Assembly: GCF_048403405.1 (NCBI RefSeq)
Contig: NZ_CP183129.1
Reading direction: 5' to 3' (one strand)
Origin: Escherichia coli
GTDB lineage: Bacteria; Pseudomonadota; Gammaproteobacteria; Enterobacterales; Enterobacteriaceae
DNA: 64,000 nucleotides
How positions within the stretch are numbered: position 1 is the first letter of the stretch; the number at the start of each line of letters is the position of its first letter. The position numbers were made by a program, and so were the translations under genes. Below are positions 14,935 to 19,117 of this stretch, one piece after another. Under the pieces are notes generated by a model. That model ran no database searches and was not told the DNA's origin. It saw only the letters and a list, made by a program, of their open reading frames with translations.

Positions 14935-15714
14935 ATGACGATGAATTCATTCGAGCGAAGGAATAAGATCATCCAATTAGTGAATGAACAGGGAACCGTG
15001 CTTGTTCAGGATCTGGCGGGAGTATTTGCTGCCTCGGAAGCGACAATCCGTGCCGATTTGCGCTTTCTCGAACAAAAAGGCGTAGTTACGCGCTTTCATG
15101 GCGGTGCGGCGAAAATAATGTCCGGTAATAGTGAAACCGAGACTCAGGAAGTTGGGTTTAAAGAGCGATTTCAGCTCGCCAGTGCGCCAAAAAACAGAAT
15201 AGCGCAGGCGGCAGTCAAAATGATCCACGAAGGGATGACCGTTATTCTCGACAGCGGAAGTACCACAATGCTTATCGCCGAAGGTTTAATGACCGCCAAA
15301 AATATCACGGTGATTACCAACAGTCTCCCGGCGGCGTTTGCCCTTTCCGAAAATAAAGACATTACTCTGGTCGTCTGTGGTGGGACCGTCCGCCATAAAA
15401 CACGCTCGATGCATGGTTCCATTGCCGAGCGTTCATTGCAGGATATTAATGCCGATTTAATGTTTGTCGGTGCTGATGGTATTGATGCGGTTAATGGTAT
15501 TACGACCTTTAATGAAGGTTATTCGATTAGCGGGGCAATGGTCACAGCCGCAAATAAAGTGATTGCCGTTCTCGATTCATCGAAATTTAATCGTCGCGGT
15601 TTTAATCAGGTACTGCCAATCGAAAAAATCGACATTATTATTACCGACGATGCTGTGTCAGAGGTGGATAAACTGGCATTGCAGAAGACACGGGTGAAAT
15701 TAATTACGGTGTAG
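14935..15714 (+). CDS. gatR: DeoR-family repressor of the gat operon; intact here
   Basis: ORF track 259 aa (start may be 14941); N-terminal HTH and C-terminal DeoR sugar-binding domain; no IS interruption. Confidence 0.8.
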   Translation: MTMNSFERRNKIIQLVNEQGTVLVQDLAGVFAASEATIRADLRFLEQKGVVTRFHGGAAKIMSGNSETETQEVGFKERFQLASAPKNRIAQAAVKMIHEGMTVILDSGSTTMLIAEGLMTAKNITVITNSLPAAFALSENKDITLVVCGGTVRHKTRSMHGSIAERSLQDINADLMFVGADGIDAVNGITTFNEGYSISGAMVTAANKVIAVLDSSKFNRRGFNQVLPIEKIDIIITDDAVSEVDKLALQKTRVKLITV

Positions 15715-15726
15715 TATTGTTCTGTA

Positions 15727-15758
15727 TGCCGGATAAGGTTTTTACACCGCATCCGGCA
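15727..15758. repeat. REP-like palindromic element between gatR and yegS
   Basis: tgccggataaggtttttacaccgcatccggca resembles the REP consensus. Confidence 0.5.
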
Positions 15759-15795
15759 TTACGGATTCTCCCTGGTTCAAGAGAGAATAGTTTGA

Positions 15796-16695
15796 TTAAC
15801 GCAATAATGGACAATCTGGTGGTAATCGACAACGCAACGCCGCCGGAAGTATTTCAATATGGAAGTTTTGCCCACTCAACGGTTCGCCATCAAGATTAAA
15901 AGTGATTTCGTGTGGGGCTTGTATATCAAACCACGACGAAGCGCCTTCGATAATATTCGGGTTATCTTCGTCAGATTTTAAGGTTGATACGAGAGCTGGA
16001 AGAATTTCATCGCCGGTAAAAATGCGCAGTTGCAGCAGGCCATCGTTAATTAACGCGTTCGGGCACAATTGCTGACCGCCACCGGCCTGACGCCCGTTAC
16101 CAATACCAATGACCAGGGCGTCACCTTGCCAGTGAAAGTTTTCACCGCGGATCTCACAACGGTCCGGTTGCAGAGTATCCATGCGCATTAAGCCATGAAT
16201 GATGTAAGAGACGCCACCCAGCGCGGCTTTTAATTTTTCCGGCGTTTCTGTGGTAATACGCGTCCCAAATCCGCCTGTCGCCATATTAATAAAACAGGTT
16301 TGTTTGTTGACCTGCGCCATATCTATCGCAATGGCGTCACCGGCAATTGCCAGTTTCAGCGCCTTATCCAGTGCCTCAGGAATCCTTACACTGGTGGCAA
16401 AATCATTGGCGGTTCCTAATGGCAAAATTCCTAGCGCGGGTATGTCATCCCCCTCACACTGAATCAACGCCGTAGAAACTTCATTAATGGTGCCATCGCC
16501 ACCACCGGCAATCACCGTTGCGACGCTCAACTTCCGGGCCTCCTCTACATATCGTGCGGCATCGCCTTTCTCCCAAGTGACCCGCACATGGATCGTCATT
16601 CCTTCCTCACGCAACAGCATAATTGCTTCGCGCAATGGTAAATTGTCAGTACTTTTGCCATTAAGAATCAGTAAGCTGGCGGGAAATTCTGCCAT
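15796..16695 (-). CDS. yegS: Lipid kinase (DAGK-catalytic-domain family), 299 aa
   Basis: ORF track; GGDGT motif; matches YegS as recalled. Confidence 0.85.
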
Positions 16696-17109
16696 GATCG
16701 TATGTGCCTTTATGATTGGTCTGTAGATAGTGTAGAGCAGAAAAGAAAAGGTGGAGTCAGAACAGGATGAAAGTCGGAGGATAAAAAATCAGTTCAAGTA
16801 TGGAGGATTCGGTGGTTACCACCAGGAGCTTGCAATGGGGACAGTGAATGTTAACGGTAGCCATAGGTAAATTTCAAAAAAGAGCATATACCTAATATTC
16901 AACTAAACAGTGGCATCTTCAATATACTATTAAAAATATATTAACCCCCCCATGGGGTTACCCGGAAGGGCCTCCGTGTATGTAATTCCTACTTATGTAG
17001 GAAATGTTGTACAGAACATTTATTATAATCCTATTCAATTATAATAATCATGCCATTATTATATTTAAACACCAGAGCGTGTCGTTGGTATTTAATGGGG
17101 GAAGGTGAG

Positions 17110-17427
17110 ATGAAAAAGATAGCTGCTATATCATTAATTAGTATTTTTCTTATGTCTGGTTGTGCTGTGCATAATGATGAAACAAGTATCGGTAAATTTG
17201 GTCTTGCATATAAAAGTAATATTCAGCGTAAACTCGATAACCAATACTACACCGAAGCCGAAGCTTCTTTAGCCAGGGGCAGAATTTCTGGTGCAGAAAA
17301 TATAGTAAAAAATGATGCAGCTCATTTCTGTGTTACTCAGGGCAAAAAAATGCAGATAGTTGACCTGAAGACAGAAGGTGCAGGATTACATGGCGTCGCT
17401 CGTCTGACATTCAAATGTGGAGAGTGA
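17110..17427 (+). CDS. yegR: Small putative lipoprotein, 105 aa
   Basis: ORF 17050..17427; start placed at MKKIAAISL with lipobox LMSGC; AT-rich gene. Confidence 0.7.
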   Translation: MKKIAAISLISIFLMSGCAVHNDETSIGKFGLAYKSNIQRKLDNQYYTEAEASLARGRISGAENIVKNDAAHFCVTQGKKMQIVDLKTEGAGLHGVARLTFKCGE

Positions 17428-17584
17428 GAATATTTTTTGGTAAGCGTCAAACATGCGCGTTCTGATTGTGCGTAGCCGGAACCTGTACGAGCACGATGCC
17501 GTTAAGTGAAAGGCATCGTGCTATGAAGGGGGATTCTATCGATGTGGTCAATGGAAGACGGTGACCAGGATACGGCTTATGCAT

Positions 17585-17611
17585 AAAAAATAAGCCCGTG
17601 TAAGGGAGATT
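17585..17611. other. Phage P2 attB core-like sequence (aaaaaataagcccgtgtaagggagatt) at the cyaR 3' end, unoccupied
   Basis: 27-mer read from sequence; matches the P2 attachment core as I recall it; no prophage genes flank it here. Confidence 0.5.
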
Positions 17612-17671
17612 ACACAGGCTAAGGAGGTGGTTCCTGGTACAGCTAGCATTTTATGGGTTATGTTTTTCAGC
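17585..17671 (-). ncRNA. cyaR: CyaR (RyeE) Hfq-dependent sRNA
   Basis: Reverse complement reads GCUGAAAAACAUAACCCAUAAAAUGCUAGCUGUACCAGGAACCACCUCCUUAGCCUGUGUAAUCUCCCUUACACGGGCUUAUUUUUU, matching E. coli CyaR as recalled. Confidence 0.85.
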
Positions 17672-17755
17672 GAAACGGATGATAACCTTAATAAATGCAG
17701 CTGTATGTGATCGGTTTCTAAGAATTTTCCATCCGGGAAAAATAATCGAAATTAA

Positions 17756-19117
17756 TCACTTACCGTGGGGGTTACGCGTGGTTTCCCCGGAGAAATTACG
17801 CATCAGGAGCGCGTAATTTAGCTCAAGATCCTGCGGCACCGGGATCCACACAGTATAACCATCGCCTGGTGCGACCGGCATAGCTTCACCTTTGGCGTTT
17901 TCCATATGCTCAAGGGTAAAGTTAATGTTGCCTTGCGGCGTCATCAGCTCAAGGCTGTCGCCAACGGAGAATTTATTTTTCACCGCTACCGCCGCGAGGT
18001 CGCCCTTGCGCTCACCGGTAAACTCACCAACAAACTGCTGGCGGTTAGAAACTGAATAACCGTATTCGTAGTTCTGATAATCGTCGTGAGTATGACGACG
18101 CAGGAAACCTTCGGTATAGCCACGATGCGCCAGACCTTCCAGAGTTTCCAGCAGGCTGGTATCGAATGGTTTGCCCGCAGCGGCATCATCGATAGCTTTA
18201 CGATAAACCTGTGCGGTGCGTGCGCAATAGTAGAAAGATTTGGTACGGCCTTCGATTTTCAGCGAATGCACGCCCATTTTGGTCAGGCGTTCTACATGGG
18301 CGATGGCGCGCAGATCTTTCGAGTTCATGATGTAAGTGCCGTGCTCATCTTCAAACGCGGTCATATACTCGCCCGGACGCTGGGCTTCTTCGATCATAAA
18401 CACTTTGTCAGTTGGTGCGCCGATACCCAGCGTCGGCTCAACATTTTGCACCGGAATCGGCTCGTACTTGTGTACGATGTTGCCAACGTCATCTTCTTTC
18501 CCTTCCTGGACGTTGTACTCCCAGCGGCAGGCGTTGGTGCAGGTGCCCTGGTTCGGGTCGCGCTTGTTGATATAGCCAGAGAGCAGGCAGCGACCGGAGT
18601 AGGCCATGCACAGCGCGCCGTGAACGAAGATCTCGATCTCCATATCCGGCACCTGATTACGAATCTCTTCAATCTCTTCCAGCGACAGCTCGCGAGAGAG
18701 GATCACGCGGGTCAGTCCCATTTGCTGCCAGAATTTCACCGTCGCCCAGTTCACGGCGTTAGCCTGTACCGAGAGATGGATCGGCATTTCAGGGAAGTGC
18801 TCGCGCACCAGCATAATCAGCCCTGGATCGGACATAATCAGCGCATCCGGCCCCATTTCCACCACCGGTTTCAGGTCACGGATAAAGGTTTTCAGCTTGG
18901 CGTTGTGCGGTGCAATGTTGACCACGACATAAAACTTTTTCCCCAGCGCATGGGCTTCATTAATGCCGAGCTGAAGATTTTCGTGGTTGAATTCGTTGTT
19001 GCGCACACGCAGGGAGTAACGTGGCTGGCCCGCATAAACAGCATCTGCGCCATAAGCGAAAGCGTAACGCATATTTTTCAGCGTTCCCGCCGGGGAAAGG
19101 AGTTCCGGTTTAAACAT
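17756..19117 (-). CDS. yegQ: Peptidase U32-family protein (tRNA uridine hydroxylase TrhP family), 453 aa
   Basis: ORF track; matches YegQ as recalled. Confidence 0.85.
   Translation of the reverse strand: MFKPELLSPAGTLKNMRYAFAYGADAVYAGQPRYSLRVRNNEFNHENLQLGINEAHALGKKFYVVVNIAPHNAKLKTFIRDLKPVVEMGPDALIMSDPGLIMLVREHFPEMPIHLSVQANAVNWATVKFWQQMGLTRVILSRELSLEEIEEIRNQVPDMEIEIFVHGALCMAYSGRCLLSGYINKRDPNQGTCTNACRWEYNVQEGKEDDVGNIVHKYEPIPVQNVEPTLGIGAPTDKVFMIEEAQRPGEYMTAFEDEHGTYIMNSKDLRAIAHVERLTKMGVHSLKIEGRTKSFYYCARTAQVYRKAIDDAAAGKPFDTSLLETLEGLAHRGYTEGFLRRHTHDDYQNYEYGYSVSNRQQFVGEFTGERKGDLAAVAVKNKFSVGDSLELMTPQGNINFTLEHMENAKGEAMPVAPGDGYTVWIPVPQDLELNYALLMRNFSGETTRNPHGK

Follow-up and report, generated by a model that had tools for sequence, protein, structure and literature searches.

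The 414-bp divergent intergenic region between yegS and yegR (positions 16696–17109 of a 64-kb stretch of Escherichia coli DNA, hereafter the window) is mostly ordinary, and combines a known EvgA site, a strain-specific palindrome without functional sign and an unannotated IS1 fossil. It very probably represents an H-NS-type, AT-rich divergent control region in which the EvgA box is the sole clearly functional dyad, the other palindrome (palindrome 1) is a product of drift, and a relic of an IS1N-type element occupies part of the spacer. The functional element was already known, being the published EvgA site of yegR, and has little significance outside annotation, to which the IS1 relic adds a small detail. 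A preliminary description, made from the letters of the sequence, had pointed to two palindromes here and had offered regulator sites, a small transcript and an old horizontal origin of yegR as explanations. One regulator site and the horizontal origin stood up, and a function for palindrome 1 and a small transcript did not, as judged by conservation, Rfam searches, covariation and folding. The main lesson is that a reader without tools was able to spot a real operator by eye. The motif match, its uniqueness, its recurrence at known EvgA targets, its invariance and the IS1 homology come from the present analysis; EvgA binding at yegR, the co-induction of yegR and the RpoD and H-NS sites are taken from the literature.

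The gene order in the window is gatD and gatR (plus strand), yegS (minus strand; 15796–16695, encoding a lipid kinase), yegR (plus strand), cyaR (minus strand) and trhP/yegQ (minus strand; 17756–19117), and the K-12 map is the reverse complement of this order. The boundaries of the intergenic region are based on open reading frames, base composition and the RefSeq annotation of the identical strain TUM14771, with which the 415 bp that were queried share 100% identity. Among the 5426 complete E. coli genomes, 5423 carry the region, at identities of mostly just 90–95%. Its GC content is 0.379, compared with 0.52 for the window as a whole, which places it within the lowest 1.4% of 415-bp windows and confirms the earlier impression of an AT-rich divergent promoter region of roughly 410 bp. 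On the far side of yegS, gatR (14935–15714) is intact in the window and encodes 259 amino acids; it is split by IS3E in K-12. A REP-like palindromic unit lies between gatR and yegS (15727–15762), where a partial Rfam naRNA4 match of 28.9 bits falls below the gathering score.

Both perfect 7-bp palindromes that had been picked out by eye are exact. Palindrome 1 (TAACCCC-CCCAT-GGGGTTA; 16942–16960) has arms at 16942–16948 and 16954–16960, separated by a 5-nt loop, and palindrome 2 has the arms TTCCTAC and GTAGGAA at 16986–16992 and 16997–17003, separated by a loop of 4 nt. The window contains a total of 55 perfect 7-bp inverted repeats with loops of 3–8 nt, or 0.36 per 415 bp, and shuffled versions of the intergenic region carry at least one in 15–17% of trials and two or more in 3–5%. 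Because single perfect 7-bp dyads are thus common by chance, palindromy alone is weak evidence.

Palindrome 2 is, on the evidence of its sequence, the already known EvgA box of the yegR promoter. The EvgA consensus, reportedly that of Masuda and Church from 2003, reads TTCYTACA-NN-TGTARGAA, an inverted repeat of 18 bp; this motif was tested here solely by its recurrence at known EvgA targets. The 18-bp inverted repeat TTCCTACTTATGTAGGAA (16986–17003) matches the consensus TTCYTACANNTGTARGAA with one mismatch. It is the sole match in the 64 kb at up to three mismatches. Seven matches at up to two mismatches were found in 54 kb of K-12 loci surrounding known EvgA targets, against approximately 0.05 expected by our own estimate, and six of them are located in promoter regions, namely those of yegR, emrK/evgA, frc, yfdX, safA and ydeP. 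The yegR box of the window is identical to the K-12 yegR site. Within the K-12 mdtE coding region (excerpt L005, 7887–7904), there is an EvgA-box-like sequence, TTCTTACGCATGAAAGAA, with two mismatches. No EvgA motif at up to two mismatches was found upstream of K-12 gadE.

Conservation of the box was assessed in 11 diverse E. coli alleles, picked across the whole identity range of the intergenic region. None of its 18 columns is variable, even with the divergent N96 allele included, compared with 34 of the 65 columns (52%) in the spacer just upstream (16921–16985), which extends from the end of the IS1 relic to the EvgA box and also contains a 9-bp indel relative to K-12. Relative to its flanks, the box therefore shows the pattern of purifying selection. 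In published work, yegR was up 11.9-fold along with yfdX, ydeO and emrK and was described as evgA-regulated, and an EvgA site was reported at all directly regulated genes. A review that cites Itou et al. (2009) describes strong EvgA binding to the yegR promoter. The proposal that the palindromes are regulator sites is thus correct for palindrome 2, on the strength of motif, recurrence and invariance, and is not supported for palindrome 1, which is unconserved and broken in K-12.

An exact 20-mer of the EvgA box was also used to scan one genome per species, a design that is uninformative on other Escherichia species. The scan returned a single contig, DXKH01000116.1, from a metagenome-assembled genome labelled Citrobacter sp.; the E. 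coli species representative was not among the matches. The contig carries gatR, yegS and yegR with the same flanking genes, and between yegS and yegR it is near-identical to the alleles of E. coli. The Citrobacter label looks wrong. A phage integrase gene is found beside yegR on this contig, at the position of the attachment site.

The end of the EvgA box and the yegR ATG downstream of it are 106 bp apart. A TATAAT hexamer (17040–17045, plus strand) begins 36 nt past the end of the box and lies approximately 58 nt upstream of the start codon, and its spacing suggests that it is the −10 element of an EvgA-dependent yegR promoter. In K-12, the ydeP gene has a promoter-like sequence, TTGAAG-16-TATATT, at the same spacing after its own EvgA box. 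Facing the other way, a consensus scan identified the promoter-like sequence TTTAAA-17-TATTAT directed towards yegS (17041–17069, minus strand), and Shimada et al. (2014) give identical hexamers for yegS. By genomic SELEX, sites for both RpoD holoenzyme and H-NS were placed in the yegS–yegR spacer (Shimada et al., 2014), in keeping with an AT-rich promoter that is silenced by H-NS and depends on an activator. Under the mechanism proposed here, mild acid would lead EvgS to phosphorylate EvgA, and an EvgA dimer would then occupy the 18-bp inverted repeat at 16986–17003. Bound EvgA would activate a weak sigma-70 promoter just downstream, with 17040–17045 as its probable −10 element, and thereby switch on yegR, a small, AT-rich and apparently horizontally acquired lipoprotein gene. 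We infer both the exact position of this promoter and the geometry of its activation.

The stretch between the EvgA box and yegR is itself rich in dyads. In the whole intergenic region, there are six matches to perfect 7-bp inverted repeats against approximately 0.2 expected, and these correspond to five distinct repeats, as the matches at 17041 and 17042 represent a single repeat read in two registers. Four of the six fall within a tract of 24% GC (17000–17075), where 0.1 would be expected and where none of 5000 shuffles reached four; the preliminary description did not list these four. The tract contains the probable yegR core promoter and the minus-strand promoter-like sites, with inverted repeats at 17002–17021, 17023–17044 and 17041–17062. 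N96 retains a dyad at the third of these positions, with different arms and spacing. The dyad excess at 17000–17075 is not explained by EvgA. A second regulatory layer might lie in either of two places: the three conserved repeats at 17002–17062 would act as an operator array for another regulator or as an H-NS nucleation structure, or palindrome 1 would act as a lineage-specific terminator or insulator. We regard such a layer as unlikely. If it were real, a terminator or insulator at palindrome 1 would uncouple yegS from the divergent yegR promoter.

Palindrome 1 is most likely incidental and, we infer, without a conserved role; it would have arisen by drift where the spacer is at its most variable. 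The repeat is perfect in the window and in the elppa4 and AF10 alleles. In K-12, O121 and AR0019 it reads TAAAGCC-CCCAT-GGAGTTA, with two central mismatches, and it is different again in CT282, CM2, W5-6 and N96; the stem is broken in all seven of these alleles. Eight of its 19 columns are variable across the 11 alleles, and in the CM2 allele one pair change (C-G to T-A) retains pairing. The exact 70-nt context of palindrome 1 occurs in at least 176 of 5426 genomes, and the true number may be higher, since related alleles were probably missed through low-complexity masking; the allele classes suggest an upper limit of approximately 13% of genomes with a perfect palindrome 1, giving a range of roughly 3–13%.

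The terminator-like appearance of palindrome 1 deserves separate consideration. A lenient terminator scan matched it on the minus strand, with seven pairs (four of them G-C) and the tail ATATATTTTT, and the extended minus-strand hairpin has a folding energy of −16.7 kcal/mol. Upstream on the same strand are promoter-like sites, one of which matches the published yegS prediction. These observations would suit an intrinsic terminator or attenuator, specific to a lineage and acting on the yegS-sense (minus) strand, which would stop transcripts arising at 17041–17085 before they reach yegS. However, most alleles have a disrupted stem, that of K-12 among them, in which the 9-bp deletion also removes part of the T-rich tail. 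The hairpin folds no better than shuffled sequences (z −0.23), and it is neither conserved nor maintained by compensatory changes among alleles. RNAalifold analysis of nine distinct alleles on the yegS-sense strand detected no covariation at palindrome 1, giving −10.7 kcal/mol with an unfavourable covariation term of +0.64. Given the shuffled controls and the covariation term, a conserved RNA structure around palindrome 1 was rejected. In addition, the Term-seq supplements examined show no yegS or yegR 3′-end and mention neither gene. We consider a terminator at this position quite improbable.

A role for palindrome 1 as the operator of a further transcription factor, acting on yegS or yegR, is more doubtful still. 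The dyad is a perfect 7 + 7 repeat, it remains unique in the window even with two mismatches allowed, and it sits 26 bp upstream of the EvgA box. Against this, the variable columns alter both half-sites in most alleles, and single perfect dyads of this length are, as the counts above show, not rare. To our knowledge, no regulator motif matches palindrome 1.

The suggestion that the palindromes mark a small non-coding transcript was not borne out and seems extremely improbable. It would draw on the length of the spacer, as 414 bp is long for a divergent promoter, on the presence of promoter-like sites on both strands together with one terminator-like site, and on the proximity of a real small RNA, cyaR. 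Nevertheless, an Rfam search of the intergenic region down to E = 10 returned only a spurious eukaryotic snoRNA match, nothing is annotated there in the K-12 RefSeq record, neither the folding nor the covariation analysis supports a structured RNA, and the IS1 relic accounts for part of the extra length. Finally, a coincidental match of palindrome 2 to the EvgA motif, with yegR responding to EvgA indirectly (for example via YdeO or GadE), can hardly be credited: although a tolerance of three mismatches yields at least one match in 35 of 100 shuffles of the window, the actual site has one mismatch, the motif at up to two mismatches is found at every known direct EvgA target examined, the box is invariant amid a hypervariable neighbourhood, and yegR is counted among EvgA-bound promoters in the literature.

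The decayed insertion sequence lies upstream of yegS and, as judged by homology, is a new, minor annotation finding. On the minus strand, it preserves the left end of an IS1N-type element, namely the terminal inverted repeat, the leader and the first 12 insA codons (16833–16920, with codons continuing to 16829). A sensitive blastn search of 16700–16985 against plasmids, among whose matches were also misfiled chromosomes, retrieved dozens of IS1N-family copies at 71–77% identity over 16833–16936, with a best E-value of 3e-7. Direct comparison with IS1N by blastn gave an 86-nt match at 73% identity, with an E-value of 3e-9 against a small database. In alignments to the IS1N elements of Shigella dysenteriae and MRE600, the terminal repeat, the leader and the insA start all match. 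The IRL-like terminus of the relic, starting at 16920, reads GAAGATGCC, compared with GGTGATGCC in IS1N. The peptide encoded from the relic insA start, MATVNIHCPHCK, aligns with MASVNIHCPRCQ of InsA at 75% identity over 12 amino acids (tblastn), and homology stops there.

A 35-codon ORF begins with MATVNIHCPHCK at the relic insA start codon (16757–16864, minus strand). The Pfam model Zn_ribbon_InsA (PF03811, a CPxC zinc ribbon) matches its residues 1–12 only, with 23.4 bits against a gathering cut-off of 26.1. The K-12 version of this ORF has a GTG start and three replacements in the first 12 codons. Both the ORF and the relic are unannotated in RefSeq, and the ORF is probably not a gene.

In comparisons with IS1N and IS1A, no insB, right end, transposase insAB′, second inverted repeat or target duplication was recognisable, and the sequence is therefore a fragment rather than an element. 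IS1A was rejected as its source, as K-12 IS1A does not resemble it significantly at the DNA level (z about 0) and the homology is to the IS1N type only. A candidate IS1 right end near 16748–16764 (GTTCTGACTCCACCTT, 13/16 against the right inverted repeat) was also discarded, as it points the wrong way and is not significant once multiple testing is allowed for. Each of the 11 E. coli alleles examined carries the relic, which argues for an old insertion; an IS1N-type element would have inserted upstream of yegS before E. coli diversified and then decayed. A shared fossil of approximately 90 bp accounts in part for how long and variable the spacer is, and may be useful to annotators. The E. coli N96 allele (excerpt L014, 2500–2981) is 482 bp long; it has many substitutions, and its IS1 relic is longer by 69 + 8 bp. 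Its EvgA box is identical, and its YegR is 95% identical. The extra 69 bp, at the inner junction of the relic, had no significant tblastn or blastn support as a continuation of insA.

The gene yegR (17110–17427, plus strand) is annotated as ‘lipoprotein YegR’ and encodes a predicted 105-aa lipoprotein with the lipobox LMSGC. Its AT-richness, also noticed by eye, is reflected in a GC content of 0.381 and a GC3 of 0.264, compared with GC3 values of 0.48–0.63 in gatD, gatR, yegS and trhP. The yegR family, PF27694, is small, with 83 clusters in a set of 5.8 billion proteins; where a cluster carries a source name, this is almost always E. coli or Shigella. Homologues with 48–82% identity occur in unrelated contexts, with one located between IS elements in Enterobacter and others beside glutaminase, nitroreductase and ivy genes. 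The EvgA-like box is absent at the distant homologue loci examined. Three metagenomic homologues (L020, 2501–3154, L021 and L022; 77–82% identity) adjoin nitroreductase and ivy genes with no EvgA-like box nearby, and are immediately followed by a conserved ORF of 108–110 aa that belongs to no Pfam family. The deviant composition, the tiny family and the non-syntenic distant homologues support the horizontal acquisition of yegR that had been suspected, and the distribution of the box suggests that it was acquired or retained at the E. coli yegR locus. An invariant EvgA box beside a hypervariable stretch is consistent with the recruitment, within the E. coli lineage, of a foreign lipoprotein gene into the acid-stress regulon.

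Downstream, the small RNA gene cyaR (17588–17673, minus strand; Rfam RF00112, 100.7 bits) converges on yegR and is separated from its stop codon by 160 bp (17428–17587). The 3′-end of cyaR is a P2-type attachment site, so that yegR had rightly been placed next to a prophage attachment site; this site is empty in the window strain. Any transcription that continued past the end of EvgA-induced yegR would be predicted to enter cyaR in the antisense direction. The spacer between the two genes contains an 11-bp perfect hairpin (17493–17525; AGCACGATGCC and GGCATCGTGCT) with an 11-nt loop and no T-run on either strand, and this hairpin is kept in K-12. At the cyaR junction, K-12 carries a PR-X remnant of approximately 630 bp (ogrK, yegZ) that is absent from the window strain, and the two loci thus differ in that yegR is followed by the yegZ/ogrK remnant in K-12 and directly by cyaR in the window strain.

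Among known systems, Rho-independent terminators share with palindrome 1 a short, G+C-containing minus-strand hairpin followed by a T-rich tail, but palindrome 1 departs from them in its seven-pair stem, its interrupted T-run, its unconserved hairpin and the lack of a known upstream transcription unit. The relic has the IRL-like terminus, leader and insA start of the left end of IS1 family elements of the IS1N type; unlike intact members of the family, it has only approximately 90 bp left, with no insB or right end. With H-NS-silenced, horizontally acquired AT-rich loci, the region shares a GC content of 0.38 in a background of 0.52, a yegR GC3 of 0.26 and a listed H-NS site. At such loci an activator counteracts silencing under stress, a role that composition and one SELEX table suggest for EvgA here. 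The yegR box is also like the other boxes of the EvgA regulon (emrK-evgA, ydeP, safA-ydeO, yfdX, frc and yegR), which have the same 18-bp TTCYTACA-NN-TGTARGAA form and precede the start codon of a gene induced by EvgA by 100–250 bp, as does the yegR box. The yegR box differs from the consensus in having T instead of A at position 8 of the left half-site, and is otherwise materially the same.
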